This document shows, piece by piece, positions 3,012 through 59,839 of a stretch of DNA of 64,000 nt. How positions within the stretch are numbered: position 1 is the first letter of the stretch; each line of letters opens with the position of its first letter. The notes under the pieces were generated by a model, which made no database searches, had not been told where the DNA came from, and saw only the letters and a program-made list of their open reading frames with translations. The translations under genes and the position numbers were made by a program. The stretch is from an uncultured Oscillospiraceae bacterium. Lineage in GTDB: Bacteria; Bacillota; Clostridia; UMGS1883. Where the stretch lies: the NCBI GenBank assembly GCA_964385605.1, contig CAYLPQ010000003.1:8203-72202 (forward strand), written 5' to 3'.

Positions 3012-4013
3012 TCACAGTGCATTCTGCAGAATTTCAGCGCGCTTTATATCGCGCATTCCCGCCGCTTCCTCGCCTGTTGCAAGAACAAGGGTTGCGGGCA
3101 TTGTGTCAAAGAGCGCCTTACGCAGTTTTGCACAGTCAATATTCTTTATTATTCCTGAATTTGCTCCCATACAAACATTGGAAACAAGATTCATTGCCTC
3201 ATTGCTTGAAATCATATAAGCATATTTGAGAAGTCCCAGACTGCGGAGACATTTGTCGGTCATTTCGGACTGTTTTTTCTCAAAAAGCTCTGCCGATATA
3301 CGTCGTTCCTCACTGATAAGACTGCACGCGGCGGCTGTAAATCTTGTTATAATATCCGTTTCTTCTGCACCAAGGGTTGTCTGATTTGACAGCTGATAAA
3401 GGTCACCGCTTGCCTTTGAGCCTTCGCCGTAAAGACCGCGCACCGTCATAGAAAGGTTCGCCGCCCATTTCAGAAGAGGGCTGAGGCTGTGGGTAAGACT
3501 GATTGCAGGCAGATGAAGCATCACTGACGCACGAAGCCCTGTTCCCGCATTGGTGGGACAGCTTGTAAGATAGCCGAATTCCTCGTCTACGTCAAAGGTA
3601 AGCTTCTCCGATAAAAGTGCTTCAAGCTTTTTGGCTGTATCGTAGGCTTTTTCCGCCTCGAGACCGCTTTCGAACACCTGCAGACGGATGTGATCCTCCT
3701 CATTTACCATAACGGAAATTTTTTCATCCTTACTTATTATTGCCACAGAAGGAACTCTTGAAGCACAAAGTTCGGGACTTATAAGATGTTTTTCTATGAG
3801 AGATTTTTTCTCGGTATCTGAAATATCGCTCATACGGTAGAGCTTGAGTTCATTTTTCAGGGGTGAATTATCAAATGCCGACCAGACCTCTTCCACAAGC
3901 TTCCGCGCATCGGCTACGGACATATTTGACGGGTAGGGGATTCCCTTGATATTACGGGCAAGACGTATTCTGGTGGTTACAGCAATATCGTTTTCGTTAC
4001 CTGTTGGTTTCAT
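3012..4013 (-). CDS. mcsB: protein arginine kinase McsB
   Basis: ATP:guanido phosphotransferase domain (CPTNAGTGLRASVMLHLP). Position between mcsA and clpC fits. Confidence 0.93.
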   Translation of the reverse strand: MKPTGNENDIAVTTRIRLARNIKGIPYPSNMSVADARKLVEEVWSAFDNSPLKNELKLYRMSDISDTEKKSLIEKHLISPELCASRVPSVAIISKDEKISVMVNEEDHIRLQVFESGLEAEKAYDTAKKLEALLSEKLTFDVDEEFGYLTSCPTNAGTGLRASVMLHLPAISLTHSLSPLLKWAANLSMTVRGLYGEGSKASGDLYQLSNQTTLGAEETDIITRFTAAACSLISEERRISAELFEKKQSEMTDKCLRSLGLLKYAYMISSNEAMNLVSNVCMGANSGIIKNIDCAKLRKALFDTMPATLVLATGEEAAGMRDIKRAEILQNAL

Positions 4014-4492
4014 TATTTATTATCCCCTTTCTGTGAATTTTCCGTTTCACGGATTTTATCGCGGAGAACTGCCGCCTGTTCAAAATTCTCCTCGGCTATA
4101 GCCCTGGTCAATTCTTCTCTTAATTTTTCAACAGGAGATTTTTGGGTTTCTTTCTTTGGCTCCTCTGCAGATTGAACGGGGGCAGTGACGTGCTTTGCAG
4201 TACCGTGAATTTTTTTAAGCATTGCACTCGCCTGGGGGCGGAATGTATTATAGCATTCTCCGCAACCCATTCTGCCGCGCCTTGAAAATTCTGCAAGAGT
4301 CATTCTGCAGACAGGGCAAACGGTGTTCTGCTTTGACGGACGTGTGCCGAAGCTTAAAATTGAGCCAAGATTATCAAATATAGACTCCTGGGACGCGCAG
4401 GCTGAACAAATATTCAGTGTTCTTTTCTGCCCGTTTACTATCTGTGTATACATTACAGTTGCGTTATTTTTACCGCATTTCTCACATAACAT
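4013..4492 (-). CDS. mcsA: McsA (UvrB/UvrC-motif, zinc-finger activator of McsB)
   Basis: Four CxxC pairs (CEKCGK, CSAC, CPVC, CGEC) plus a C-terminal UVR motif (FEQAAVLRDKI). Its stop overlaps the mcsB start by 1 nt. Confidence 0.9.
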   Translation of the reverse strand: MLCEKCGKNNATVMYTQIVNGQKRTLNICSACASQESIFDNLGSILSFGTRPSKQNTVCPVCRMTLAEFSRRGRMGCGECYNTFRPQASAMLKKIHGTAKHVTAPVQSAEEPKKETQKSPVEKLREELTRAIAEENFEQAAVLRDKIRETENSQKGDNK

Positions 4493-13035: not shown

Positions 13036-13060
13036 AATTTAAACCTCCGTTTTTTTAAGT

Positions 13061-13095
13061 TTGAAATGTGAAATTCGAATTTCGCACTTCGCATT
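13061..13095 (-). repeat. tandem heptamer array (5 units)
   Basis: Plus-strand units: TTGAAAT GTGAAAT TCGAATT TCGCACT TCGCATT. Same family as 20884-20918, 20992-21019, 36373-36393 and 43235-43262. Confidence 0.7.
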
Positions 13096-13107: not shown

Positions 13108-13139
13108 TTTTGCGCTCTGGAGCTTTTTAACATCTCCGT
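13108..13139 (-). repeat. stop-adjacent conserved box, copy A
   Basis: Minus-strand reading is TAA-AC-GGAGATGTTAAAAAGCTCCAGAGCGCAAAA, directly after the rlmB stop. 28/29 identical to 50183-50211. Confidence 0.8.
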
Positions 13140-13871
13140 TTATCTTCCTTGTCTTACTGCTTCATATATAAAAAGCGATGCCGCAATCGACGCATTAAGG
13201 GAATTTACATTGCCCCTCATTGGGATTTTAACCTTGAAATCGCATTTTTCCAGAACAAGACGGCTTATACCCTCACCCTCAGAGCCGATAACGATTGCCA
13301 CTGCACCCTTGAGGTCAGCATCAAACAATTCCTTGTCTCCCGATGCGTCTGCGCCCGTTACCCAGATGTTTTTCTTCTTTAAGTCATCAATTGTTTTTGC
13401 AAGGCTGGCAACTCTTGCCACGGGGGTATACTCCACTGCGCCTGCAGATGCCTTGGCACAGGTTGCCGTAAGGGACGCGGAATCGTGCTTCGATATTATA
13501 ATACCGTGAACTCCTGCGCAGTTTGCCGTTCTGATGATAGAGCCCAGATTACGGGGGTCGGCAATTTTGTCAAGGATTATGATGAAAGGGGGCTCTCCCT
13601 TTTCCTCTGCTATGCGGAGTATATCGTCAACAGTTTTATACTCTGCCGCCGCACAAACCGCAATAACACCCTGATGCGCCCCTGTCTCACTCATTTCGTC
13701 AAGCTTACGGGGGTCGGCTTCGCTTATTTGTATGCCCTTTTCCTTTGCCATACGGATTATGGGAATAATGCTTCCGTGCTTATCGCCCTTTTTTACATAA
13801 ATCTTGTCTATATTTCTCCCGCTTTTAAGGGCTTCTGTAACGGGATTTCTGCCCTCTATTTTATCTGTCAT
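13140..13871 (-). CDS. rlmB: 23S rRNA (guanosine-2'-O-)-methyltransferase RlmB (SpoU/TrmH family)
   Basis: SpoU_sub_bind N-terminus plus SpoU motifs (LDKIADPRNLGSIIRTA, AIVIGSEGEGIS, SLNASIAASL). Confidence 0.9.
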   Translation of the reverse strand: MTDKIEGRNPVTEALKSGRNIDKIYVKKGDKHGSIIPIIRMAKEKGIQISEADPRKLDEMSETGAHQGVIAVCAAAEYKTVDDILRIAEEKGEPPFIIILDKIADPRNLGSIIRTANCAGVHGIIISKHDSASLTATCAKASAGAVEYTPVARVASLAKTIDDLKKKNIWVTGADASGDKELFDADLKGAVAIVIGSEGEGISRLVLEKCDFKVKIPMRGNVNSLNASIAASLFIYEAVRQGR

Positions 13872-18760: not shown

Positions 18761-18781
18761 CGGGCAATTTTAACATCCGTC
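18761..18781 (-). repeat. stop-adjacent conserved box, copy D
   Basis: Minus-strand reading is TAA-GACGGATGTTAAAATTGCCCGG, directly after the ACT-gene stop. The 17 nt GATGTTAAAATTGCCCG are identical to copy B (21028-21047). Confidence 0.75.
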
Positions 18782-20148: not shown

Positions 20149-20862
20149 TTATTTCAAAGATTGAATATAATTACCATCTCTGTCATACATAAATACTGCT
20201 TCTTCCAATTTGAGCTGGGGTTTGCCGTCCTTTGCACCCTCGATAAGAATGAGAGAAGCCGCCCTGCCCTCACCGGGGTAGACTATTTTCAGCCTTTTCG
20301 GTTCAATTTTATACTTTCTGAAAGTAGTTATGACATCACACATTCTGTCAGCGCGGTGTACCATAAAAAGCTTACCGCAAGGCTTTAAGACATCCCTTGC
20401 CGCCTTTACCACGTCGTCAAGAGTGCACAGAATTTCGTGACGGGCAATTGCAAGGTTATCCTTGGGATTAACAAGCCCACCGCCCACGTTCATATAGGGC
20501 GGATTGCAGGTCACGGCATCAAAGCTGAGATGTCCGTATATATCAACAACGTCTTTCACATCGGCACATTTAACGCGGATTTTGTCCCCAATACCGTTCA
20601 GCTCCATTGTGCGCTGTGCCATAGAGGCAACCTCCGGCACAATATCCACCGCGTCAATGCTTTCAGGATTGCAAAGTCCCCACACAAGAACGGGAATAAT
20701 ACCCGTACCTGTACAGAGGTCAAGTACCCTTGCGCCCTTTTTCAGCTTCACAAATCGGGACAGAAGCACTGCATCACTGCCAAAGCAAAAGCCGTCTTTA
20801 TTCTGTATTACTTTTAAATCGTTTATACCAAGGTCTTCAACCTTTTCATAATCATATACCAT
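20149..20862 (-). CDS. tRNA (adenine37-N6)-methyltransferase-like SAM-dependent methyltransferase (YabB/TrmN6 type)
   Basis: SAM motif VLDLCTGTGIIP and catalytic NPPY (TCNPPYM). Confidence 0.85.
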   Translation of the reverse strand: MVYDYEKVEDLGINDLKVIQNKDGFCFGSDAVLLSRFVKLKKGARVLDLCTGTGIIPVLVWGLCNPESIDAVDIVPEVASMAQRTMELNGIGDKIRVKCADVKDVVDIYGHLSFDAVTCNPPYMNVGGGLVNPKDNLAIARHEILCTLDDVVKAARDVLKPCGKLFMVHRADRMCDVITTFRKYKIEPKRLKIVYPGEGRAASLILIEGAKDGKPQLKLEEAVFMYDRDGNYIQSLK

Positions 20863-20883
20863 ATTTACTCGTACCTCGTAAAT

Positions 20884-21047
20884 AGTTCGAAATGTAAAAT
20901 GCGAAGTGCGTAATGAATGTTGATTTTCGTTAAAACGAAAACCTTTGTTTTAATAAAAAGATTTTCTCCACAGAGAAAATCAACCATCATTTCGAATTTC
21001 GAACTTCGAATTTCGCATTAAAATCTTCGGGCAATTTTAACATCTCC
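20884..21047 (-). repeat. composite palindromic repeat: two inverted heptamer arrays, internal hairpins, and conserved box copy B
   Basis: 20884-20918 reads AGTTCGA AATGTAA AATGCGA AGTGCGT AATGAAT. 20992-21019 reads TCGAATT TCGAACT TCGAATT TCGCATT. Internal hairpins at 20924-20941 and 20961-20982. Box cgggcaattttaacatctcc at 21028-21047. Confidence 0.75.
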
Positions 21048-21061
21048 TAATAGAAGAAAGT

Positions 21062-21088
21062 AAAGGTCGCCAACAATAGGCGACCTTT
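21062..21088 (-). terminator. terminator after the ferredoxin gene
   Basis: aaaggtcgcc / ggcgaccttt stem with a 7-nt loop and a T-rich tail on the minus strand. Confidence 0.75.
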
Positions 21089-21104
21089 CTTTTTATGTTT
21101 GCTA

Positions 21105-21278
21105 TTATTCAGCAGGGTTGGGAGCTGCTACGGGGCAGATACCAGCACAAGCGCCACACTCTACGCAAGCATCAGCATCGATTTCGTACTTACCATCTGC
21201 TTCTTTAATGCATTCTACGGGGCATTCAGCTGCACAAGCGCCGCAACCGATGCACTCATCGTTGATAACGTATGCCAT
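21105..21278 (-). CDS. 2x[4Fe-4S] ferredoxin
   Basis: Two CxxCxxCxxxCP motifs (CIGCGACAAECP, CVECGACAGICP). Start taken at MAYVIND; the track ORF extends to 21299. Confidence 0.92.
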   Translation of the reverse strand: MAYVINDECIGCGACAAECPVECIKEADGKYEIDADACVECGACAGICPVAAPNPAE

Positions 21279-21437
21279 TGTCGTACACCTCTTTTTCATA
21301 AATTATACCTACATTGTAGCATATTTTTCTCAAATTTCAATAGTTTTTTTCGTATTTATAGTTTTTTTGGCTTGAATATGGGGTGTTTTTTATATATAAT
21401 GGTTAAAAATATAATTTTTTGTTAGGAGTAATGTGCC

Positions 21438-30230: not shown

Positions 30231-30250
30231 AGGAGCTTTTTAACATTTCC
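30231..30250 (-). repeat. stop-adjacent conserved box, copy E
   Basis: Minus-strand reading is TAG-GGAAATGTTAAAAAGCTCCTGA, directly after the ypeB stop. Confidence 0.7.
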
Positions 30251-36249: not shown

Positions 36250-36270
36250 GGGTTGTTAAAATCGCCCAGA
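36250..36270 (+). repeat. stop-adjacent conserved box, copy F
   Basis: TAA-T-GGGTTGTTAAAATCGCCCAGA, directly after the stop at 36246-36248. Confidence 0.6.
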
Positions 36271-36337: not shown

Positions 36338-36362
36338 GGGATTCATCTCCACAATGAACCCC
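36338..36362 (-). terminator. rho-independent terminator of serS
   Basis: Minus strand: GGGGTTCAT TGTGGAG ATGAATCCC TTTTT. Preceded by the heptamer-like block GAAATTCGAAATGAAGG. Confidence 0.8.
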
Positions 36363-36438
36363 TTCCTTCATTTCGAATTTCTAATTTAATTTTTCATTAT
36401 ACATTCAGAACTTTTATTACAATAATCAAACAAACCGC

Positions 36439-43140: not shown

Positions 43141-43176
43141 AATAAAAATCCTTTCACAAAGGTTTTTTAAGTTCTA

Positions 43177-43262
43177 AATTATAAATTCGAAGTGATGATA
43201 GGTTTTCTTTTTTAAAGAAATCTTTTCCTTCATTTTGAATTTCGCACTTTACATTTCGCATT
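43177..43262 (-). repeat. inverted heptamer arrays filling the mnmE-mnmG spacer
   Basis: 43177-43197 reads AATTATA AATTCGA AGTGATG. 43235-43262 reads TTGAATT TCGCACT TTACATT TCGCATT. The right array abuts the mnmE stop codon. Confidence 0.7.
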
Positions 43263-44942: not shown

Positions 44943-45635
44943 TCAAACTCCCTCGAGTTCGTTTTCTTTACGATTATATCTGTACTTTGAAACATAATCG
45001 TCTCCATATTCCTTTTTCTTTGTTGTTATAACGATACAACGGTTAGGATCCTTACCTGTAGAATATGTTGTAATATTTCTGTACTCCTGAAGTGCTGAAT
45101 GAATAATTCTTCTTTCGTTAGGATTCATAGGCTCAAGAGTAACACTCTTTCTGCTTCTTGAAACAACTCCTGCCATTCTTTTTGCAAGCTTTATAAGAGT
45201 TTCTTCTCTCTTACCTCTGTAATTTTCAGTGTCGATTGTAACTCTTATATAATCTTCCTCATCCTTATTTACAACAAGTGATGTAAGATACTGAAGTGCA
45301 TCAAGTGTATCGCCGCGTCTGCCTATTACCTTACCCACAGCTTCGCTGTCACCAACGATTTCAATATTTACAGTTTCATCCTCATACGAAGACTTTATTT
45401 CTGTTTCAATACCGAAATTATCCATTACACTTTTAACGTATTTTTCGGCTTTCTGAAGGGGATTTTCCTCCATCTTAACTCTTACCACTGCATTTTCTGC
45501 ACCGAGACCGAGGATTCCTCTTTTACCTTCATTTACTACTTCTATTTCTACATTCTCTCTGTCAGTATTAAGCTCAAGAAGTGCTGCATTAACGGCTTCA
45601 TCAATTGTTTTACCGCTTTTTTCTATAATAATCAT
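44943..45635 (-). CDS. jag: RNA-binding protein Jag/KhpB (Jag_N, KH, R3H)
   Basis: 230 aa. N-terminal Jag domain and C-terminal R3H (ERRIIHSAL). Confidence 0.9.
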   Translation of the reverse strand: MIIIEKSGKTIDEAVNAALLELNTDRENVEIEVVNEGKRGILGLGAENAVVRVKMEENPLQKAEKYVKSVMDNFGIETEIKSSYEDETVNIEIVGDSEAVGKVIGRRGDTLDALQYLTSLVVNKDEEDYIRVTIDTENYRGKREETLIKLAKRMAGVVSRSRKSVTLEPMNPNERRIIHSALQEYRNITTYSTGKDPNRCIVITTKKKEYGDDYVSKYRYNRKENELEGV

Positions 45636-46498
45636 TATTTTACTTTCCTTTCAGCCATTATTTCTTCTTCAATTTTTTTATTTATCACCTTTGTCATAAA
45701 TGCCTGCTGTAACAGCTGGAATGCTGTTGAAATAAACCAGTAAAGAGACATACCTACAGGCATTGTAACTGTGAAAAATGCTGTCATAATAGGCATAAAC
45801 GTCATCATTGAGTTTGACATACTCTGTGCCTGGTCAGCTGCTTCATTAGTCCTTTTCTTATCTGTCTTCTTATTGTTTTCCATCTGTTTCTTTGTAACAT
45901 AAGAAGAAATATACGTAGCAATTACTGCTAGAGCAGGGAATATCCATGCTGTAATGCTTGTCCAGTGGTCCTTGGGAATCATGGTAAGATCTATTCCGAA
46001 GAAATCGAAGTCTATCATATCCTTACCTAATTTTGCAAGCTCTGCCGCAAAACCTTCTATTCCGCAAAGACTAACCTGATACACAGCACCCTCTACACCG
46101 AGAGCTGTTGTTATTGTATCAATCTGTTCTTTAGTGAGTCCGAGCATATAAGTAAGCGGGTCATAAACAACACGTATAAATCCAAAGAGTATAAACATCT
46201 GAAGAATAAGGGGGAGACATCCTCCCATAGGATTAACGTTGTTTTTCTTATAAAGCTCCTGCATCTTTATGCTCTGCATATTTTTATCGTTTTTGTATTT
46301 TTCCTGAATTTTCTGAAGTTCAGGCTGAATAAGCTGTGTTCTGGCAGTGCTCTTCTGCGACATAATTGAAAACGGAATAGTTATAATCTTAATCAAAAGA
46401 GTTACTACAATAAGAGTGAGACCGTAATCACCAATCCACTCATAAATGGGCCTTATTATAAAGGCCAGAGGCTCCGCCAATGCATATAAAAATTTCAT
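45635..46498 (-). CDS. yidC: membrane protein insertase YidC/SpoIIIJ
   Basis: 60-kDa inner-membrane protein family signature (NPMGGCLPLILQMFILFGF). Confidence 0.93.
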   Translation of the reverse strand: MKFLYALAEPLAFIIRPIYEWIGDYGLTLIVVTLLIKIITIPFSIMSQKSTARTQLIQPELQKIQEKYKNDKNMQSIKMQELYKKNNVNPMGGCLPLILQMFILFGFIRVVYDPLTYMLGLTKEQIDTITTALGVEGAVYQVSLCGIEGFAAELAKLGKDMIDFDFFGIDLTMIPKDHWTSITAWIFPALAVIATYISSYVTKKQMENNKKTDKKRTNEAADQAQSMSNSMMTFMPIMTAFFTVTMPVGMSLYWFISTAFQLLQQAFMTKVINKKIEEEIMAERKVK

Positions 46499-46534
46499 TT
46501 TTATTCTCCTTATAAAGACCGATATGTAAACCGG

Positions 46535-46753
46535 TTACGGAACAGGGTCATACCCACCCTTACATAAGGGGTGGCATCTTAAAATTCTTTTTACAGACAA
46601 ATAAAGCCCCTTTATCACTCCGTACTTTTCAAATGCTTCTAAAGCATACTCTGAACAAGTGGGTGTAAAGCGGCAACAAGGTTTTTTCATAGGAGATATA
46701 TACTTCCTGTAAAATCTGATAATACCGATAAAAATTTTTTTAATCAGTCTCAT
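46535..46753 (-). CDS. yidD: membrane protein insertion efficiency factor YidD
   Basis: YRKYISP...[11 protein letters not shown]...RCHP motif. 72 aa. Confidence 0.93.
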
Positions 46754-47084
46754 TCCCTTTTAAAAGCCCGCCTTCACAAAGCGCACTTTCCAAATCTTTT
46801 TTAAAATCGTAAAAGGTCGATTTAACCGACCTTCTCCTGGCTACAATCACAATATCGTACCCTTGAGACAAACCTTTTAAAAGTCTGTAATTTTCCTTAA
46901 TAGTCCGTCTTATTCTGTTTCTTGTAACGGCATTTCCCACCTTCGGGGAAACTGTCAGACCAAGTCTGTTGTAAGAAAAAGCGTTCCTTCTGTAATAAAG
47001 GGCAATACTACCCCTCACCACAGACTTACCCCTGTAATAGAGTCTTTTAAAATCACTGTTTTCTTTTATGGAAATTACTTTCAT
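46740..47084 (-). CDS. rnpA: ribonuclease P protein component
   Basis: RNase P protein motif ([19 protein letters not shown]). Start at ATG 47084. Overlaps yidD by 14 nt. Confidence 0.9.
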
Positions 47085-47098
47085 ACTACACACAGAGT

Positions 47099-47130
47099 GT
47101 GTTCTTTCTGCTCTTATGCAGAAAGAACAC
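47099..47130 (-). promoter_or_regulatory. perfect 13-bp hairpin spanning the rpmH stop codon
   Basis: gtgttctttctgc (47099-47111) pairs with gcagaaagaacac (47118-47130). No U-tract follows. Lies between rpmH and rnpA. Confidence 0.6.
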
Positions 47131-47248
47131 GTCTACCTCTCTGACGGCGTCTTCTGAGTACCTTTCTGCCGTTAGCAGTACTCATTCTCTTTCTGAAACC
47201 GTGGTCCTTTTTTCTTTTTCTTACGTTAGGCTGATAAGTTCTAAGCAT
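47114..47248 (-). CDS. rpmH: 50S ribosomal protein L34
   Basis: Not in the ORF track (44 aa). Minus-strand translation is [44 protein letters not shown], a canonical L34. Confidence 0.95.
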
Positions 47249-47584
47249 TTATCTGCACCTCCTTAAATATAAAAGCCCATAAAGGCTATTTTCGCTAAAT
47301 TTACCATAACGATACCAACATAGTATACCGAAAATTATTTTTTTTGTCAATAATTATTTTATTTTTTTTATTTTTAAGTTGAATTTCACCCATTAATCTG
47401 TTATAATTAATTAGATTAATAAATAAAGAGATGTGTAAGTTATTAACAGTTTTTTTTGTAAATATTTGAGTTATTAACATAATTTTTCTCTATTTTGCCC
47501 TGTTTGATGGGGTTTTTAACAGGTTTTATTAACAGGACTGTTTATAACTTTTAAAGAATTTTTTATTGTGAGGGAAATATATTT
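47249..47584. promoter_or_regulatory. oriC part 1: DnaA-box cluster and AT-rich tract upstream of dnaA
   Basis: Identical 9-mers TTATTAACA at 47440-47448, 47471-47479 and 47526-47534. Related sites are TTTTTAACA (47514) and TTATCTGCA (47249). AT-rich tract at 47331-47380. Gene-strand switch occurs here. Confidence 0.75.
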
Positions 47585-48889
47585 ATGTCATCTGATTTAA
47601 TTAAACTCTGGACCGAATGTCTTATGCTTCTTGAAGAAGAGGTTACTCCCGTAGGTTTCAACACCTGGATTAAGGACATAAGACCTATAAAGTTATCAAG
47701 TGATACCTTTACTCTTTCCGTAGGAAGTAACATTATCAAAAATATGGTTGAGATGCGTTACTATGACCTTATTAAAAATACTCTTTGTGAAATAACAGGC
47801 AAAATTTATGAAATTGAGTTTGTTGTGGGAGATTTGGCTGCATCTTCACAAAGAAGAAACGAAAATTCAAGTGTTTATGAAAAATACACATTCGATAATT
47901 TCGTAGTAGGCAATTCAAACCGTTTTGCACAGTGTGCATCACTTGCCGTTGCGGAGGCTCCCGCATATGCGTACAATCCCCTTTTCCTTTACGGCGGTGT
48001 AGGTCTCGGAAAAACTCATCTTATGCATGCTATAGGCAATTACATAAAGGATAACAATCCTAATGCTAAAATTGAATTTTTAAGTGCCGAAACATTTACG
48101 AATGAGCTTATTAATTCAATCAAGGATAATAAAAATCAGGAATTCAGAGATAAATACAGAAATATAGACGTTCTTCTTGTTGACGATATACAATTCATTG
48201 CAGGAAAAACTACTACCGAGGAAGAGTTTTTCCACACATTTAACACCCTGCATGAGGCTAACAGGCAGATTGTACTTACAAGTGACCGTCCTCCCAATGA
48301 AATAAAAACTCTTGAAGAAAGACTACGTTCAAGATTTGGCTGGGGATTAATGTGCGAAATACAGCCACCGGACTATGAAACAAGAATGGCTATTCTTCGC
48401 AAAAAAGCACAAACTGATAATGTAATAATAAGCGATGAAATTATTGAGTTTATTGCGCAGAAAATAAAGTCAAATATCCGTGAGCTTGAAGGAGTTTTTA
48501 ACAGGGTTGTTGCTTACCGCGGACTTATTAACAAGGAAATAACAATTGATGTTGCTATGGAAGCTCTTAAGGATTATGGAGAAAGTAATGAGAAAAAGAT
48601 TACTCCAGACCTTATAATTGATGCCTGTGCAAAATTCTACAACGTTAAAAAAGAAGATATTTACTCAAGAAAGAAAACAAAGGAAATTGCCTTTGCAAGG
48701 CAGGTTGCCATATATCTTATGAGAGAGGTTATTGATTATTCTTTCCCGAAGATTGGTTCTGTTTTTGAAAAAGACCATGCTACTGCTATTTACGGACATA
48801 AGCAGATTTCAAAATTGATGGAAGAGGACATCAGCGTAAAAATAAATATTGAAGGTCTTATAAATGATATAAAAGGTTCAGGTAATTAA
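47585..48889 (+). CDS. dnaA: chromosomal replication initiator DnaA
   Basis: AAA+ motif YGGVGLGKTHLMHA and a C-terminal DNA-binding domain (DHATAIYGHKQI). Confidence 0.98.
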   Translation: MSSDLIKLWTECLMLLEEEVTPVGFNTWIKDIRPIKLSSDTFTLSVGSNIIKNMVEMRYYDLIKNTLCEITGKIYEIEFVVGDLAASSQRRNENSSVYEKYTFDNFVVGNSNRFAQCASLAVAEAPAYAYNPLFLYGGVGLGKTHLMHAIGNYIKDNNPNAKIEFLSAETFTNELINSIKDNKNQEFRDKYRNIDVLLVDDIQFIAGKTTTEEEFFHTFNTLHEANRQIVLTSDRPPNEIKTLEERLRSRFGWGLMCEIQPPDYETRMAILRKKAQTDNVIISDEIIEFIAQKIKSNIRELEGVFNRVVAYRGLINKEITIDVAMEALKDYGESNEKKITPDLIIDACAKFYNVKKEDIYSRKKTKEIAFARQVAIYLMREVIDYSFPKIGSVFEKDHATAIYGHKQISKLMEEDISVKINIEGLINDIKGSGN

Positions 48890-49080
48890 CACTTTTCCTG
48901 TTAATTAACAAAATGCCTCAAAATCTTTCATTTTTTTACAAACTGTTTATTAACAGATGTAAAATGTGTTTTTATCCTTTATAAAGGCTTTTAAGAGAGT
49001 TATTCACATTATAAACCTTACTACTTATACTTTTAATTAATATATATTATTATATATTACGGAAAGGAAGAAATTTAAAA
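48890..49080. promoter_or_regulatory. oriC part 2: DnaA boxes, possible DnaA-trios and unwinding element between dnaA and dnaN
   Basis: TTATTAACA at 48947-48955 and TTATTCACA at 49000-49008 (8/9 to TTATCCACA). Then CTACTTATACTT (trio-like, about 49018-49032) and a pure A/T run, ttttaattaatatatattattatatatta, at about 49031-49059. Confidence 0.7.
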
Positions 49081-50181
49081 ATGAAATTTTTCTGCGATAC
49101 AAAAAATCTTTCGGAAGCTATTAATATTGTTTCCAAGGCTGTTGCCGTTAAATCACCCATTCCTCATCTTGAGGGAATTCTTCTTACAGCACAGGGCGGT
49201 ACTGTAACATTACTTGGTAACAATCTTGAAATTTCAATTAAAACAACTATAAGTGCAAATATTCAGGAAGAGGGAAGTATTGTTCTTAATTCAAAGATGT
49301 TTTCAGACATTGTAAGAAAGCTCCCCCAGGATGTTTGTGAAATAACAACTAATGAAAAAAATAATGTTTCTATTGTTTGTCAGAATTCAGATTATAAAAT
49401 TGTAGGTCTTAATGCTGATGAATTTCCCCAGCCTCCCCAGATTGCAAAGAAAAGCACTATTGTTTTAAAGAGTGAAAAACTCCGTGAAATAATAGGAAAA
49501 ACGTTGTTTGCTGTTTCTATGGATAATGCAAGAAAAATCCTTACAGGCTCCCTTTATGAAATTGAGAACAATAATCTTACAGTTGTTGCAGTTGACGGAT
49601 ACCGCCTTGCCCTTACAAAGATGGAGCTTGAAGGAGACCATGCAGATGCTAAATTTATTATTCCCGGTAAAACGCAGAGCGAAATTTCAAAAATTATAAG
49701 CGGAAGTGAAGATTCCGATATAGTTATTTCCTTTAGCGATAACTATGCTCTTATAGAGGGTGAGGGAATTATTATTACATCACGTCTTATAGAGGGTGAG
49801 TTCTTCTCTTACAGAAATACAATTCCTTCAGAATCAAAATATATTATTAAAACAGACTGTTATTCTTTCGGTAAAGCTATTGAAAGAGTTGAGCCTATTA
49901 TTGATGAAGTAAGTAAAAACTGCGTAAGATTTAAATTTGGTAACGGAAAAATAAACATAAGCTGTGAAACAGTTCTCGGTAAAGTAAATGACATTGTTGA
50001 ATGTGAATATTTCGGTGAAGATATAGAGATAGGATTTAACTATAAATACCTTCATGATGCTGTTTCTAGATGTGACAGCGATGAAATTGAGCTTAAGATG
50101 AATTCTCCATTCAATCCTCTTATTATAAATTCTCCGGAGGATGACAGTTATCTGTATATGGTATTACCTGTAAGAATATGA
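49081..50181 (+). CDS. dnaN: DNA polymerase III beta sliding clamp
   Basis: 366 aa, three-domain beta clamp. Canonical position after dnaA. Confidence 0.97.
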   Translation: MKFFCDTKNLSEAINIVSKAVAVKSPIPHLEGILLTAQGGTVTLLGNNLEISIKTTISANIQEEGSIVLNSKMFSDIVRKLPQDVCEITTNEKNNVSIVCQNSDYKIVGLNADEFPQPPQIAKKSTIVLKSEKLREIIGKTLFAVSMDNARKILTGSLYEIENNNLTVVAVDGYRLALTKMELEGDHADAKFIIPGKTQSEISKIISGSEDSDIVISFSDNYALIEGEGIIITSRLIEGEFFSYRNTIPSESKYIIKTDCYSFGKAIERVEPIIDEVSKNCVRFKFGNGKINISCETVLGKVNDIVECEYFGEDIEIGFNYKYLHDAVSRCDSDEIELKMNSPFNPLIINSPEDDSYLYMVLPVRI

Positions 50182-50182
50182 C

Positions 50183-50211
50183 GAGATGTTAAAAAGCTCC
50201 AGATCGCAAAA
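50183..50211 (+). repeat. stop-adjacent conserved box, copy C
   Basis: TGA-C-GAGATGTTAAAAAGCTCCAGATCGCAAAA. 28/29 identical to the reverse complement of 13108-13136. Confidence 0.8.
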
Positions 50212-50236
50212 CGAATTTCGGATTGATTCGTTTTGC
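50206..50236 (+). repeat. hairpin GCAAAACGAAT...ATTCGTTTTGC
   Basis: 11-bp stem. The arm sequences plus the following TAC are shared with the 56-nt palindrome at 8996-9051. A related hairpin lies at 59653-59676. Confidence 0.65.
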
Positions 50237-50237
50237 T

Positions 50238-50309
50238 ACGCACAAACGTCACCTCGACGTACCCACCACGTATGCCTTCGGTTCCGCCCTTCGGGATTCG
50301 TTTGTACGT
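50238..50309 (+). repeat. structured ~70-nt element, copy 1
   Basis: ACGCACAAACG-[50 nt containing TCACCTC, TACCCAC and CCCTTCGGG]-CGTTTGTACGT. Its 11-bp stem covaries with copy 2 at 44737-44805. Confidence 0.7.
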
Positions 50310-50375
50310 TCTGAAACTTTTTTCCTGTCTCTTTGGAAGTTTTAAAAATATAATTTTTAAAAAATAGGTGTAGTT

Positions 50376-50579
50376 ATGATTATAGAAATAAACACAGAAT
50401 ATATAAAGCTTGATTCTGCTTTGAAGTTTGCAGGAATTGCGGAAAATGGTGCTCACGCAAAGGAGCTTATTCTTGACGGACTTATAAAGGTAAACGGTGA
50501 GGTTGAGTTGAGAAGGGGAAAAAAGCTTTATAAAGGAGACAAATTCAGAATAGAAGACGAGGAATTTGAAATAGGATGA
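50376..50579 (+). CDS. yaaA: S4-domain RNA-binding protein YaaA
   Basis: 67 aa with an S4 fold (IKLDSALKFAGIAENGAHAKELI..VNGEVE.RRGKKL). Conserved dnaN-yaaA-recF order. Confidence 0.88.
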   Translation: MIIEINTEYIKLDSALKFAGIAENGAHAKELILDGLIKVNGEVELRRGKKLYKGDKFRIEDEEFEIG

Positions 50580-51652
50580 GAGCTTCAGGATTAGAACTCT
50601 ATAATTTCAGAAATTACGAAAATGAAAAAATTTCTTTCGGGGATGAGGTTAATATAATTTACGGCGATAACGGTATGGGTAAAACAAATATACTTGAAGC
50701 TGTTTATTATTTCTCCTATGGAAGAAGCTTTCGCACAGGCGGACGTGAAATAATAAAAGACGGTGAGAAAGAAGGAAGAATAGCACTTTCATTCTTAAAT
50801 AATGAGAGAAATTATGAAGGTGAAATTAAATTTTTAAGCGGAAAAAGAAAAGAAATTTATCTTAATGAGATTGAGCTTAAAAAAACAAGTCAGCTTCTGG
50901 GTAATTTTATATGTGTTCTTTTCACACCTGATGAAATGTCCATTATAAAAGGAATGCCTGATTCAAGAAGAAGATTTTGTGACAGTTCTATAATGCCTCT
51001 TCGTCCCCAGTTTATAAAGGAGCTTATTAATTACAGAAATATTATTAACCAGAAAACGGCTCTTTTAAAATCAAAAAGATACGAAACCCTTGACATATGG
51101 AATGAAAAGCTTGCAGAATGCGGAAGTAAAATAATGGTGATGCGCTCAAGCTATATTAAAAGAATAGAGGAAAAAGCCGCTCTTTTACAAAAGGATATTT
51201 CTCTTAAAAAGGAAAATCTCACGGTAAGATATAATCCGTCTGTAAAAATGGGAGAAAGCCTTGATGAAATAAAAGAAAATTTTCTTACAAAGCTTGAAGA
51301 ATACAAAGAAAAAGAAAAGGAAAATTTCTTCTGTATGGCAGGTATTCACCGTGACGAAATAGATTTTGAAATAAACGGAAAGCCTGCAAAAACTTACGCA
51401 AGTCAAGGACAGATAAGGACTGCTGTTTTATGTCTTAAATCGGCACAGATGGAAATAATCAAAGAAGAAACGGGTTCGTACCCTGTTATGCTTTTAGACG
51501 ATATTTTAAGTGAACTCGACAAAAAAAGACGTGATTTTCTAATATCCAGGATAAAGGGAAAACAGATTATAATAACCTGCACAGACCTTGAAAATTCTTT
51601 TATGAATAAAAACACAAATATTATAAATATAAAAGAGGGAAAGGTAATTTAA
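50576..51652 (+). CDS. recF: DNA replication/repair protein RecF
   Basis: Walker A GDNGMGKTNILEA and an SMC-like signature (ASQGQIRT). ATGA overlap with yaaA. Confidence 0.95.
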   Translation: MRASGLELYNFRNYENEKISFGDEVNIIYGDNGMGKTNILEAVYYFSYGRSFRTGGREIIKDGEKEGRIALSFLNNERNYEGEIKFLSGKRKEIYLNEIELKKTSQLLGNFICVLFTPDEMSIIKGMPDSRRRFCDSSIMPLRPQFIKELINYRNIINQKTALLKSKRYETLDIWNEKLAECGSKIMVMRSSYIKRIEEKAALLQKDISLKKENLTVRYNPSVKMGESLDEIKENFLTKLEEYKEKEKENFFCMAGIHRDEIDFEINGKPAKTYASQGQIRTAVLCLKSAQMEIIKEETGSYPVMLLDDILSELDKKRRDFLISRIKGKQIIITCTDLENSFMNKNTNIINIKEGKVI

Positions 51653-51658
51653 AAGAAT

Positions 51659-51931
51659 ATGTTTTTACATATAGGTGACAGAAAAATAATAAGTAAAAAA
51701 GAAATAATAGGGATTTTTAACCTTGAAACCACGTCTGTAAGTAAAAAAACACGGGAATTTCTCCGTATGAATGATAAAAAAGGAAATATTGAATATATTT
51801 CGGAGGATATTCCAAAAACATATATAATTTGCAGCTCTGAAAAGAAAAAGAAAGTATATGTGTCGCAGATTTCATCCCAGACACTTTACAAAAGAGCAGA
51901 AAGGATTGACTCAATTGGAACAGAAAATTAA
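51659..51931 (+). CDS. remB: DUF370 protein (YaaB/RemB-like)
   Basis: [20 protein letters not shown] is typical of DUF370. Conserved position between recF and gyrB. Confidence 0.85.
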
Positions 51932-53852
51932 TACTGCCTATGACGAAAATCAAATACAGGTACTGGAAGGACTTGAAGCTGTACGGAAAAGACCGGGTAT
52001 GTACATCGGCTCAACATCGGCAAGGGGTCTGCATCATCTTGTGTATGAAATAGTGGACAACAGTATTGACGAAGCATTGGCGGGATACTGTACACAGATA
52101 GATGTAACTCTGAACAGTGACGGCAGTGTATCTGTAAAGGATAACGGCCGTGGTATGCCTCACGGTATTCACCCGAAAATGGGTATATCCACAATCGACG
52201 TTATTTTTACAGTGCTTCACGCAGGCGGTAAATTCGGCGGCGGAGGATACAAGGTTTCCGGTGGTCTTCACGGTGTTGGTGCGTCTGTTGTTAATGCTCT
52301 TTCAACAAAGCTTGAGGTAGAAGTTCACGACGGAGAAAACATATGGTTCCAGAGCTATAAGCGCGGTGTTCCCGACGGTGAGGTTCACAAAACAGGTACT
52401 ACAGACAGGACAGGTACACAGGTAACCTTCTGGGCTGACGGTGAAATATTCGATGAAACTGTTTATGATTATGAAGTTCTTTTAAAGAGACTTCGTGAGC
52501 AGGCATTCCTTAACGGTGGTATTAAAATAATATTCAAGGATGACAGAGAAGAAAAGAGAGAAGAAGTTTTGCAGTATGAGGGCGGTATTAAAAACTTCGT
52601 TTCTTATCTTTTTAACGATAAAAAGCAGAGAAAAGATACTCTTGAGGAAGTTCACAGTGAAGTAATTTACGTAAGCGGTGAAAAAAAGGGTAGTATGGCA
52701 GAGGTTGCTCTCCAGTGGAATACCGGATATGACGAGGTCATTGAGTCATTTGCCAACAATATTTCCACAACAGAGGGCGGTATGCATGAAACAGGCTTTA
52801 AATCTGCTCTTACAAAGGTACTTTTCGAATACGGAAGAAAATATAAGCTTATTAAAGATAATGAGGAATTAACCGGCGAAGATGCGCGAGAGGGTCTTAT
52901 AGCTGTTATTTCGGTTAAGCTTGAAGAACCCCAGTTTGAGGGTCAGACAAAGACAAAGCTCGGAAATTCCGAAATGCGTACTCTTGTAGAAAGTATGGTT
53001 AAGGAAAAGCTTGCAGATTTTCTTGAGGAAAATCCCGATGTTGGTAAGGCTATTATTGAAAAGGCTCTTATGGCATCTCGTGCAAGACTTGCTGCAAGAA
53101 GAGCAAGAGAAGCTACAAGAAAAACTCCTCTCGGTTCAAGCACTCTTCCCGGTAAATTAACAGATTGTATCGTAAAAGACCCCACAAAGACGGAAATTTA
53201 CATCGTCGAGGGTGATAGTGCGGGCGGTAGCGCAAAGAACGGAAGAGACAGTAAATATCAGGCAATACTTCCTCTCTGGGGTAAGATGCTTAACGTAGAA
53301 AAAGCAAGAGAGGATAAAGTTTACGGCAATGACAAGCTTACTCCCGTAATTCAGGCACTGGGAACAGGAATAGGTGGAGAATTTAATCTTGAAAAGCTTC
53401 GTTATGACAAAGTAATTATTATGGCCGATGCCGACGTTGACGGTGCGCATATTCAGACACTTCTTCTGACATTCTTCTTCAGATTTATGCGTGAGCTTAT
53501 AGAAACAGGTCATATTTATCTTGCAAAGCCTCCGCTGTACAAGTTATCAAGAGGTAAGAAAACACAGGTTGCTTTCAGTGATGAAGAAAGAGATCAGATA
53601 AGTGAAGAAATGAAAAACGGCGATGTAAATGCAAAGGTTGATATAAGCCGTTACAAAGGTCTTGGTGAAATGAATCCCGAAGAACTCTGGGAAACAACTA
53701 TGGACCCCAAGAACAGAATACTTCTTAAGGTAACTCTTGAGGATGCTGCAAAAGCAGACGAGATATTCAGTATTCTTATGGGTGACGAGGTAGAGCCCAG
53801 ACGTGTATTTATTGAAGAAAATGCACAGTATGTAACTAACTTGGATGTGTAA
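51915..53852 (+). CDS. gyrB: DNA gyrase subunit B
   Basis: [24 protein letters not shown], Toprim [10 protein letters not shown], and [12 protein letters not shown]. Likely TTG start at 51915, 9 nt after GAAAGGA; the track ATG at 51858 would overlap remB by 74 nt. Confidence 0.93.
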
Positions 53853-53975
53853 GCAGACTGTGCCTGCACCCATGTCGCGCACTTGATAATTAAAACACAG
53901 TTCACGCGACAAAGAAGGTACGGTGAATAAGGTGTACCTTCATATCTTTCAGTAAAAGAAAGGAACTAATAAAAA

Positions 53976-56495
53976 ATGGCTAAACATAAGAATTACGAAG
54001 ATTCTCATTTTGAAGAATACTTCGACACACAAACCATTGTAGATATAGACATCGAAAAACGTATGAAAGAGGCTTTCATTGACTATGCAATGAGTGTTAT
54101 TGTAAGCCGTGCGCTTCCGGATGTCCGTGACGGTCTTAAGCCTGTTCACAGAAGAATACTTTATTCAATGTACGAGGAAAATCTTACATCGGATAAGCCT
54201 TTCTTCAAATCTGCTACAACCGTAGGTAACGTTATAGGTAGATACCATCCCCACGGTGACGCATCCGTTTACGATGCAATGGTAAGACTTGCCCAGGATT
54301 TCTCTATGCGTTACCCGCTGATTGACGGTCACGGTAACTTTGGTAGTGTCGACGGTGACCCGCCGGCTGCTTACCGTTATACCGAGGCAAGAATGAGTAA
54401 GCTTTCAAACGTTCTTCTCGAAAATATTGAGAAAAATACTGTTGATTTTGCTCCCAACTTCGACGAAAAGAGAAAAGAGCCCACAATCCTTCCTACAAGA
54501 ATCCCCACACTGCTTGTAAACGGTAGTAGCGGTATTGCTGTAGGTATGGCTACAAATATACCTCCTCACAACCTGACCGAGGTACTTAACGGAGCAATTG
54601 CACAGATTGATAACCCCGATATTACCGTGGAGGAGTTGATGGAGTATATTCAGGGTCCTGACTTCCCCACAAGTGCCACAATTATGGGAAGAAGCGGTAT
54701 CAGAAGTGCATATAGCACAGGACGCGGTAAAATCGTTATCCGTGCAAAAGCTACTATTGAGGAGCATAAGGATGGTACTTCTTCAATTATCGTTACAGAG
54801 CTTCCCTATCAGGTTAATAAGAAGATGCTCGTGGAATCTATTGCTAACCTTGTTAAGGAAAAGAAAATTGAGGGACTTTCCGACATTGATGACCATTCAT
54901 CAGACCGTGTAGGTATCCGTCTTGAAATATTCCTCAAGCGCGATGCAAACCCCTATGTTGTACTTAATCAGCTTTATAAATATACACGTCTTCAGGACAG
55001 CTTTTCTGTAAATCTTCTTGCAATTCACGACGGAAAGCCCAAAACAATGGGTCTTAAAGAGGTGCTCGCTCACTTTATCACATTCCAGGAGGAGATAGTT
55101 ACCCGCCGTACACAGTATGACCTGGAAAAAGCAGAAGCGAGAATGCATATACTCGAAGGTTTACGTATTGCTCTTGCAAATATTGATGAAATTATAGACG
55201 TTATAAGAAACTCCTACGATGATGCAAAGGAAAATCTTATGGCGCGCTTCGGACTTTCTGAAATTCAGGCGCAGAGTGTACTTGATATGCGTCTTGCACA
55301 GCTGCAGAGACTGAATGGCGAGAAAATTGAGGAAGAATATCAGGAGCTTACTCTCCGTGTTGAGGGATATAAGGCACTTCTTGCTGATAAGAATCTCCTT
55401 AACGAAAAAATTAAGGAGGAGCTTTCTGAAATCCGCGATAAATTCGGCGATGAAAGAAAGACAAATATCGAAAATGTAATGACTGAAATTGACATAGAAG
55501 ACCTTATTGAAGAGGAGGAAAGTGTGTATACACTTACTCATTTCGGTTATCTTAAACGTATACCTGCCGCAACATATCAGAGTCAGCACAGAGGCGGTAA
55601 GGGAATAAAAGGTCTTTCCACAAGGGATGAGGATTTCGTTGAAAATATCATCGTTGCTTCAACCCATACAAATATGCTTTTCTTTACAAACAAGGGCAGA
55701 ATGTACAGAATTAAAGGCTATCAGATTCCCGAAGCAGGCAGACAGGCAAAGGGAAGCGCTATTGTAAATCTTCTCCCCATTGAAAAAGAGGAGAAGGTTA
55801 CGGCTGTTATTTCTGTGCCCAAATTTGAAGAAGATAAGTATCTTCTTATGTGTACAAGAAATGGTATTATCAAGAAAACTGCCGTTACAGATTACGACAC
55901 ATCCCGTAAGGGCGGTATTATCGGTATCGTTCTTGACGAGGGTGATGAGCTTATAAAGGTTGAACTTACAGACGGCGAAAACGACGTTATTGTAGGTACA
56001 AACAGCGGTATGGCTATCCGCTTCAACGAAAAGGATGTCCGCTCTATGGGCAGAGTAACACGCGGTGTTAAGTCTATTAATCTCCGCGGTGAGGATTATG
56101 TTGTTGGTATGTGCCTTGCAATAGAGGGTACGGAGCTTCTTACAGTAACGGAAAACGGCTACGGTAAGAGAACGGATATTTCCGAATACCGCGTTCAGTC
56201 AAGAGCAGGTGTAGGTATAAAGAACTACAAGTGCAGTGATGTGACAGGTAATGTTGTAGGTCTCCGAACTGTTTCCGATGATGAGGATATTTTGCTTATA
56301 ACAAGTGAGGGTATTATTATAAGAATTGCCGCAAACGGTATCAGCTCCATCGGCAGAAGCACCAAGGGTGTAAGACTTATGCGCCTTAATGAGGGGGTAA
56401 GTGTTGTATCAATGGGTGTGACAGAGCACGAAGAGCCAGAAGAAGAAACAACAGAAGAAAGCAGTGAAAATTCTTCGGAAGAAGTAACAGAATAA
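53976..56495 (+). CDS. gyrA: DNA gyrase subunit A
   Basis: Active-site region [10 protein letters not shown], a QRDR-like [17 protein letters not shown], a C-terminal beta-pinwheel, and an acidic tail. Confidence 0.98.
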
Positions 56496-59762: not shown

Positions 59763-59839
59763 TGGCGTGCTTGGAGGGATTCGAACCCCCGACCCTTTGG
59801 TTCGTAGCCAAATACTCTATCCAACTGAGCTACAAGCAC
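59763..59839 (-). tRNA. tRNA-Arg (anticodon ACG), CCA encoded
   Basis: Minus-strand cloverleaf: GTGCTTG TA GCTC AGTTGGATA GAGT A TTTGG CTACGAA CCAAA GGGTC GGGGG TTCGAAT CCCTC CAAGCAC G CCA. Confidence 0.93.

Follow-up and report, generated by a model that had tools for sequence, protein, structure and literature searches.

The window analysed here, a 64-kb stretch of DNA (64,000 nucleotides (nt) of contig CAYLPQ010000003.1) from an uncultured Oscillospiraceae bacterium, contains a palindromic element made of tandem 7-nt repeats in the spacer (20863-21104) that separates two minus-strand genes, one for a ferredoxin (21105-21299) and one for a trmN6-like methyltransferase (20149-20862). Tandem heptanucleotide repeats have a literature going back decades, in which no agreement has been reached on where they come from or what they do. 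Our data make it probable that the element in this spacer (site B) is a degenerate, gene-less copy of a palindromic cassette of the intervening-sequence type, likely a selfish insert whose transcript would carry a stem prone to RNase III. In a complete cassette the upstream stop codon is followed by a purine-rich array of about four 7-nt units, a PF05635/TIGR02436 gene, an inverted pyrimidine-rich array and then the ribosome-binding site and start of the next gene. The PF05635/TIGR02436 product is S23p, an Avd-like four-helix bundle, and the cassettes are usually co-oriented with the genes on both sides. The homology of the ends, the association with a gene, the polarity, the turnover and the potential to fold are observed directly in the present study. 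The element is an ordinary decayed member of a known, poorly understood kind, the heptamer-repeat palindromes of the short tandemly repeated repetitive (STRR) or intervening-sequence type. On this reading it is neither a dedicated regulator of trmN6 nor a protein-binding iteron array.

Structure of the ferredoxin-trmN6 spacer and of the other copies

The element is best read on the minus strand, which is the transcribed strand since the flanking genes are on it. The initial annotation of this DNA missed this reading direction as well as the PF05635 gene of the complete relatives. In minus-strand order the spacer presents the ferredoxin stop codon, a G+C-rich terminator hairpin, TAG and the box GGAGATGTTAAAATTGCCC, the purine-rich array, hairpin 1 with its run of five U residues (U5), 18 nt, hairpin 2, the pyrimidine-rich inverted array, which ends in TTCGAACT, and finally ATTTACGAGGTACGAGTAAAT with the trmN6 ATG. 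The features are given below, where L125 is a gene-bearing Clostridial cassette and L003 a locus from a relative of the window.

21062-21088, unstranded: G+C-rich hairpin, AAAGGTCGCC-loop-GGCGACCTTT and then a T-rich tail, terminator-like on both strands
21029-21047, minus strand: box GGAGATGTTAAAATTGCCC with TAG before it, a separately recurring motif
20985-21022, minus strand: 5' arm, purine-rich, AATGCGA AATTCGA AGTTCGA AATTCGA AATGATG, aligning with the 5' arm of L125 and with the gene-less element of L003
20955-20981, minus strand: inner hairpin 1, GATTTTCTC-TGTG-GAGAAAATC and then UUUUU, corresponding to the hairpin directly upstream of the PF05635 gene of L125
20924-20941, minus strand: inner hairpin 2, TTTTCG-TTTTAA-CGAAAA, corresponding to the hairpin directly downstream of the PF05635 stop codon of L125
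20884-20918, minus strand: 3' arm, pyrimidine-rich, ATTCATT ACGCACT TCGCATT TTACATT TCGAACT, pairing with the 5' arm in the predicted fold
20863-20883, minus strand: host leader ATTTACGAGGTACGAGTAAAT with the ribosome-binding site, directly upstream of the trmN6-like start codon

The hairpin at 21062-21088 stands directly after the ferredoxin stop codon and outside the repeat element; a hairpin is found at the equivalent position in the relatives L002-L004, and the sequence of its stem varies among them. The leader ATTTACGAGGTACGAGTAAAT is also outside the element, being near-identical in L002 and L003 despite the differing elements there.

Read on the plus strand, 20992-21019 consists of four in-register heptamers, TCGAATT TCGAACT TCGAATT TCGCATT, with TTCGAA palindromes at 20991, 20998 and 21005, and Tandem Repeats Finder reports 20989-21019 with a period of 7 and 4.4 copies. 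The inverted array at 20884-20918 reads AGTTCGA AATGTAA AATGCGA AGTGCGT AATGAAT. Between them lie the hairpins TTTTCG-TTAAAA-CGAAAA (20924-20941) and GATTTTCTC-CACA-GAGAAAATC (20960-20981), the latter called terminator-like for the minus-strand TTTTT next to it. Both arrays, including the three TTCGAA palindromes, had been described in the initial annotation and are present as it listed them; its hairpins are also there, the second one lying one base away from the 20961-20982 given before. The box that it had placed against the array is the minus-strand GGAGATGTTAAAATTGCCC at 21029-21047. Its view of the arrays as non-coding sequences, paired and inverted around inner hairpins and belonging to a dispersed family, is borne out as well.

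The core of site B (20880-21022) folds as a single long stem whichever strand is taken; the free energies are -37.4 kcal/mol (minus) and -35.7 kcal/mol (plus), each with z = -4.6. No sigma-70-like promoter was predicted within the spacer, and a profile search of all reading frames of at least 50 amino acids (aa) revealed no PF05635/TIGR02436 gene in the 64-kb window. At the gathering threshold, Rfam gave one tRNA only in the whole window and no family for the element; this sole match is a tRNA gene at 59766-59839 on the minus strand. A permissive Rfam search of the spacer stayed at chance level, the best match being PyrR with 26 bits (threshold 54). The window contains no rRNA, and the element is placed between protein-coding genes and not in helix 25 or 45 of 23S rRNA.

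There are four array loci in the 64 kb, all of them intergenic and each with the three or more tandem 7-nt units by which STRR sequences and heptanucleotide repeats are recognised. Sites A, C and D are shorter versions of the plan of site B:

13058-13095, minus strand: site A, two arms abutting as a bare hairpin centred on TTCGAA, fold z about -2.2 on both strands
36338-36393, unstranded: site C, half element with the array 36369-36393 beside a terminator hairpin (36338-36362), between convergent genes
43170-43262, minus strand: site D in the mnmE-mnmG spacer, with the 5' arm at 43230-43262, a reduced interior and the 3' arm at 43170-43197

The recurrence of the family noted earlier was confirmed with copies at 13058-13095, 36369-36393, 43170-43197 and 43230-43262. 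Site A is flanked by a gene for 243 aa (13140-13871) and by a small downstream gene starting at about 13040, both on the minus strand. At site C a copy of the box (36254-36267) follows the stop codon of the plus-strand gene. At site D the 5' arm overlaps the mnmE stop codon; after the 3' arm come an A-run and a ribosome-binding site. The same polarity is seen at sites A, B and D: a stop codon lies at or close to the start of the 5' arm, and an A-rich stretch leads from the 3' arm to the ribosome-binding site of the next gene. Searching for three tandem TCGMAYT units with at most three mismatches gave 13 matches in the window, as compared to 0.09 expected from dinucleotide-preserving shuffles (largest shuffle value 1). 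All 13 fall within 13058-13095, 20884-21019 or 43170-43262, and site C (36369-36393) is a weaker half-copy.

The origin of replication (oriC) region of the window (rnpA/dnaA, about 46.7-47.6 kb) contains no copy of the array. The replication-origin gene neighbourhood extends over 44943-56495. Its minus-strand open reading frames (44943-47093) match the position of jag, yidC and rnpA (rnpA at 46740-47093) beside mnmE/mnmG in the relatives L177-L181. The plus-strand frames (47585-56495) were assigned to dnaA (47585-48889), dnaN, gyrB and gyrA by position and size alone, and the A+T-rich spacer 47094-47584 holds short TTATT repeats.

Cassettes with a PF05635 gene

A genome scan for three exact TCGMAYT units, with one genome per species, returned at least 120 loci from many phyla. 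Those listed include perfect arrays that stand alone as well as inverted pairs that form hairpins; an inverted partner was found on the expected side for 30 of the 130 arrays among the matches listed, mostly at a gap of 2-110 nt. At two Clostridial loci, L118 and L087, the gap is about 440 nt and a small gene is present inside it. The 135-aa product of L118 is the PF05635 '23S rRNA intervening sequence protein' (E = 4.9e-27), and the 122-aa product of L087 (Acutalibacteraceae) is the TIGR02436 'four helix bundle protein' (E = 1.8e-31). In the PDB, the L087 protein has a match to entry 2RLD (E = 2.3e-41) and a weak one to 2GSC, both with five chains per entry, and the S23p of Xanthomonas is described as a homopentamer (PMC4990558). 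The cassette protein showed no match to any PADLOC defence model. It was also observed that at L029, L034, L082, L083, L093, L100, L106 and L111, from various phyla, other heptamer arrays adjoin the TCGMAYT arrays, with units such as CAATCTG, GAGCCCC, CAGTCCT, CTAGGGA, AACCTGG and TGTAGGT and several unit types per locus.

A close counterpart of site B is L125, an orthologue of L118 that lies downstream of aspS and whose 124-aa gene matches TIGR02436 (E = 4.7e-31). Its layout is AAATGCGAAATTCGAAGTTCGAAATTCGAAATGAAGG-T-GGATTTTCGCcacaaGCGAAAATC-[gene]-GATTTTCGCacaGCGAAAATCAACCATAAC-TTCGAACTTCGCATTTCGAATTTCGAATT-AAAAAGGGGG. Both of its arms are near base-for-base equal to those of site B and the inner hairpins match, the alignment spanning the 5' arm and hairpin 1 and then hairpin 2 and the 3' arm. 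Thus, site B has the form of a cassette without the gene between hairpins 1 and 2, which are 18 nt apart at site B as against a gene of 372 nt in L125. Arms of the window type are shared by L125, L118 and L087, the inner hairpins additionally by L125. As there is no PF05635 gene in the window and a gene lies between the homologous arms in L125, L118 and L087, the window copies are classed as gene-less derivatives and not as full members.

In order to see the PF05635 genes with no selection on the DNA pattern, an unbiased scan seeded by protein was made, in which metagenome contigs were searched with an alignment of three cassette proteins. It gave 52 loci, 35 of them non-duplicate, and at 30 of these 35 there is at least one strong flanking tandem array. 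Of the flanks, 45 of 70 were positive, and of control windows taken at the same loci, 20 of 305. Arrays had a period of 7 in 30 flanks and of 8 in 15, and no other period was found. The score of inverted matching between upstream and downstream flanks reached 12 or more in 26 of the 35 loci, the maximum among shuffles being 11. The unit varies from locus to locus (AAACGCA, GGAAAGT, GTTAGTG, AATTACG, CAACTCT, GTGAACA, GAGTGGA, CTTACGA and AATTGAAG were seen) and within each locus both arms match. Taken over the family, this matching of arms around locus-specific units amounts to covariation.

A protein search of annotated plasmids gave 31 records, of which 16 are from Nostoc. The cassette layout was present in all six cases inspected, namely Nostoc punctiforme, Anabaena cylindrica, Monoglobus, Treponema, Planktothrix and Chlorohelix; in Nostoc punctiforme, four to five CAATTCG units precede the gene and four GAATTGC units follow it. 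In 22 of 25 cases the cassette gene points the same way as its upstream neighbour, and in 18 of 23 the same way as its downstream neighbour. A purine-rich 5' arm was seen in 22 of 23 cassettes and likewise in the window copies. Both observations indicate that the cassettes are directional. The overall correlation between protein identity and repeat unit is weak (Spearman 0.08, p = 0.09); the mean similarity of the units is 0.67 for proteins at least 60% identical and 0.44 for those below 50%, a difference that base composition may confound.

Judging from the sequences collected, PF05635 genes across phyla are almost always bracketed by inverted arrays of 7- or 8-nt units. This wider rule is the interesting part, with gene-less arms scattered over gene junctions in many phyla. 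Should a full census bear the rule out, several separate literatures on heptamer repeats would unite, and the very common 'four helix bundle protein' of unknown function would gain a concrete nucleic-acid partner. Annotators could then recognise such spacers as insertions and not as regulatory sites. A limited literature search found no paper linking heptamer arrays or STRR sequences generally to PF05635 four-helix-bundle genes, and a search for the array sequence itself gave nothing relevant.

Some PF05635 cassettes lie inside defence loci, as in L183 (Anabaena cylindrica plasmid), L184 (Monoglobus), L186 (Planktothrix) and L187 (Chlorohelix), the positions being between cas2 and cas1, hsdS and hsdR, DISARM drmD and an MmeI-type enzyme, and a helicase and an N6 methylase. 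In L129, L131 and L171 the cassette is about 30 nt upstream of a tRNA-Leu(TAG) gene, and in L130-L132 a fragment resembling the first ~35 nt of tRNA-Leu precedes it. These contexts in L129-L132 and L171 may reflect insertion into or beside a tRNA gene.

Turnover, proposed mechanism and alternative explanations

An identical copy of the site B region was found on one metagenomic contig. In L002, whose trmN6 is 90% identical, an element of the same architecture lies between conserved flanks, with different units (AATGTGG AATGCGG AGTATGG ... CATTCCG AATTCAA CATTCCG AACTCCG) and a different inner hairpin. In L003 (84%) only AAATGCATAATGCATTTTGCATTT, a short TGCAT palindrome, is left at this junction, and in L004 (81%) there is the terminator only and no element. 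L004 also lacks an element at the junction orthologous to site A, where 22 nt separate a SpoU-type methylase gene from a small ACT-domain gene. At the site D junction, only a remnant of the 3' arm is present in L177 (89%), an unrelated insert of 398 nt in L180 (85%) and an empty 21-nt spacer in L181 (82%). The trmN6-rsmI and rsmI-ACT spacers of L003 in turn contain elements; the window has 16 nt in the first of these spacers and no element in the second. The rsmI-ACT element of L003 is a gene-less twin of site B with both hairpins present. Gain, loss and remodelling of elements of this family apparently keep pace with the divergence of species, and turnover this rapid at fixed junctions speaks against conserved regulation of any single gene by them. 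As for the other inserts, the one in the mnmE-mnmG spacer of L180 (1496-1893, in the genome which also holds L002) has two box copies and G+C-rich hairpins, with no heptamer arrays and no called gene. The trmN6-rsmI spacer of L003 (3452-3549) has a box, a hairpin and a single ATGCATT-type array without a 5' arm, which is the layout of site C.

The following course of events is proposed. The element would be selfish or neutral, gained and lost at gene junctions, with replication slippage and arm-to-arm copying making and reshuffling its 7-nt units. What remains of the window copy after deletion of the gene would be its two arms, together with the pair of small hairpins found on either side of the gene in the Clostridial subfamily. 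In a read-through transcript from the ferredoxin gene the arms would pair into a long imperfect double-stranded RNA stem, roughly 30 base pairs (bp) or more. Such a stem is of the type that RNase III takes as substrate and, by analogy with the 23S rRNA intervening sequence only, could be cleaved. Once released from a complete Clostridial cassette, the transcript of the gene would be capped and stabilised by the small terminal hairpins. At site B, some additional termination before trmN6 may come from hairpin 1 and its U5 tail.

There are points that weigh against this course of events. As no PF05635 gene exists in the window, we infer the descent of the gene-less copies from a gene-bearing cassette through the homology of the ends. 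The history could also be the reverse, with the arrays primary and the gene a later tenant of pre-existing hairpins, because gene-less arrays greatly outnumber gene-bearing ones: an adjacent PF05635 gene was found at 2 of the 120 loci listed by pattern. That scan covered the TCGMAYT unit only and does not establish a special abundance of it across phyla. No mobility enzyme and no target-site duplication was identified, and cleavage by RNase III at site B is drawn from analogy. At site D the sense RNA folds no better than shuffles (z = -0.1) and the antisense does better (z = -2.9). Mismatches capable of G.U pairing number 20 on the sense strand and 32 on the antisense, which is no sign of selection for pairing of the sense RNA, and this asymmetry was dropped as evidence of such selection.

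Among the alternatives, the initial annotation had considered terminal repeats of a miniature inverted-repeat transposable element (MITE), and of its three readings this one comes closest, the arrays being indeed the inverted ends of a cassette. In the strict sense it would make the window copies gene-less non-autonomous transposons whose heptamer arrays serve a transposase encoded elsewhere as terminal inverted repeats, one candidate enzyme being of the HUH/Y1 kind acting on subterminal hairpins, as in IS200/IS605 or in repetitive extragenic palindrome (REP) elements with their REP-associated tyrosine transposases (RAYT). Four copies in 64 kb, all at intergenic junctions, inverted ends with subterminal hairpins and presence or absence that varies among close relatives are what such a family would show, and related cassette genes at non-homologous loci carry related units (the 0.67 and 0.44 given above, for at least 60% and below 50% identity). 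A true MITE is nevertheless unlikely, since the full-length relatives encode only the four-helix-bundle protein and not a transposase, and no transposase was seen adjoining any copy. The A+T-rich junctions (TTAA/TTTA / ATGCG ... AAYTT / AAAAA) show no consistent target-site duplication, the empty sites of the relatives being too diverged to align. The arms also differ between the window and L002 at one orthologous site, which indicates change in place and not re-insertion of a fixed sequence. REP elements are imperfect palindromes of 20-40 nt headed by a conserved GTAG. The arms here begin with AAATGCGAA and by eye lack this GTAG. The refutation proposed with the initial annotation, namely confinement to the window or a match to a described family, came out divided: the family is far from confined to the window, yet it resembles described classes (STRR, the Xanthomonas heptamer pairs and the Coxiella heptamers). 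A cis element retained by the host, that is a stem-loop processing site, stabiliser, insulator or attenuator which sets the expression of neighbours (ferredoxin against trmN6, mnmE against mnmG), would account for the constant position between a stop codon and the next ribosome-binding site, for the fixed polarity and for the terminator-like hairpin 1 with its U5 tail; an effect on transcript stability has been proposed for the STRR hairpins of cyanobacterial operons (PMC2670836). We give this explanation little credence, as the element is absent from orthologous junctions in relatives at 81-82% protein identity and the same element precedes unrelated genes, no Rfam family matches it, and the site D sense-strand fold is no better than chance.

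It is still harder to regard the arrays as iterons or operators, where each heptamer would be a double-stranded DNA site for a replication or transcription factor. Tandem short units which include the palindrome TTCGAA and recur in one genome speak for this proposal, the leading one in the initial annotation. Several points speak against it, and we consider it the most improbable of the explanations weighed here: the oriC region of the window is free of copies, promoter prediction gave no sigma-70-like site in the spacer, all copies are at gene junctions and the arrays track the orientation of transcription with a fixed polarity. The unit is not conserved at the orthologous site of L002, a relative at 90% protein identity, and differs in L003 too, and a 7-bp period would put successive sites on different faces of the helix. 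Consensuses for the Spo0A 0A box, CodY, Rex, LexA, the CcpA cre and sigma-H sites were compared by eye, and none fits the sequence or the spacing. Plain heptanucleotide microsatellites (long simple sequence repeats), made by slippage, without function and unrelated to PF05635 cassettes, have in their favour the report that no long simple sequence repeat is commoner in prokaryotes than the heptanucleotide (Mrazek 2007, as cited in PMC4679880 and PMC4692102) and the many solo perfect arrays among the genome-scan matches listed. Slippage alone would leave the inverted pairing, the shared inner hairpins and the fixed polarity unexplained, and equally the arm-for-arm match with gene-bearing cassettes, so that it is very improbable as the whole explanation.

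The origin of site B from a palindromic cassette can be extended into a broader proposal, which at present is speculative and in our opinion rather doubtful. It states that heptanucleotide arrays across bacteria are the ends or footprints of one widespread class of PF05635 cassettes, and that the ring-shaped Avd-like protein binds its own array with one unit per subunit. STRR sequences, the Xanthomonas pairs, many of the long simple sequence repeats and the elements of the window would all fall under it. The four to five units of the arrays would then parallel the five chains per PDB entry in both solved homologues. Binding would either make the cassette mobile, perhaps together with a reverse transcriptase as is the case for Avd in diversity-generating retroelements, or govern how RNase III processes it, and the gene-less copies of the window would depend on the protein in trans.

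Known heptamer systems and the box motif

The closest known systems are the intervening sequences of 23S rRNA that carry an S23p gene, in Coxiella burnetii, Leptospira and others. In Coxiella a 28-bp inverted-repeat stem surrounds the S23p gene and RNase III cuts within the stem (Warrier et al. 2016, PMC4990558). Tandem heptameric repeats (GACAGAT) adjoin the gene, their number varies between strains and the gene is decaying (PMC4990558). Like the cassettes, these sequences have terminal inverted repeats which form a long stem around a PF05635 gene and heptameric repeats of strain-variable copy number in the 5' part; the gene is prone to decay and the insert is regarded as selfish. The window copies differ from them in lying in mRNA spacers between protein-coding genes and not in helix 25 or 45, and in the complete loss of the gene. 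Their arms are almost wholly made of heptamer units, and RNase III cleavage is extended to them by analogy.

In cyanobacteria, STRR sequences are 7-bp tandem repeats of unknown function, which form hairpins and lie in operon spacers (PMC2670836). They share with the window element the tandem intergenic 7-bp units able to form hairpins, and the inverted heptamer arrays flanking the four-helix-bundle gene of Nostoc punctiforme provide a link between them; the window element differs in being from Clostridia and in its unit, TCGMAYT. Xanthomonas genomes have hundreds of intergenic GGGAATC arrays, with about 70-75 convergent pairs per genome capable of forming stem-loops (Rehm et al. 2015, PMC4692102), and the pairs are mostly conserved in position between two species (PMC4692102). 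The GGGAATC unit is G-rich and was interpreted as quadruplex-forming, with no cassette gene or S23p reported, whereas the unit in the window is A+T-rich and varies among close relatives. In Beggiatoaceae, direct TAACTGA repeats lie just upstream of start codons, and the authors proposed binding of a translational regulator (PMC4679880); in Geobacter metallireducens the 'class 3' sites are arrays of five heptamers, mostly paired and drawn on opposite strands (PMC2700814). Both resemble the window element in having heptamer arrays of 2-6 units. The Beggiatoaceae repeats, in contrast to it, are mostly direct single arrays of one fixed unit with no cassette gene noted. Polymerase slippage has been suggested, in PMC4679880 and PMC4692102, as the cause of prokaryotic heptanucleotide repeats. 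MITEs and REP elements are likewise small, intergenic, palindromic, multicopy and strain-variable, but the arms in the window are internally periodic and change their unit at a fixed site, with no target-site duplication and no transposase partner found.

The box seen at site B is a motif in its own right. Its consensus is TAR-(0-4 nt)-GGRGATGTTAAAA and then TTGCCC, TCGCCC or AGCTCC. It usually sits directly after the stop codons of unrelated genes and often lies 5' of heptamer elements. Taken as coding sequence it opens a mini reading frame (ATG TTA AAA), with length and sequence that differ at every copy. A conserved leader peptide was considered and rejected, as the frames differ in this way and GGAG abuts the ATG with no spacing. 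The copies are:

Window: 13125-13137, 18762-18775, 21029-21047, 30238-30250 and 36254-36267
Relatives: L002 2953-2970; L003 282-295, ~3452-3464 and ~4393-4404; L180 1495-1508 and ~1722-1735

The copies at 18762 and 30238 of the window occur without a heptamer element.

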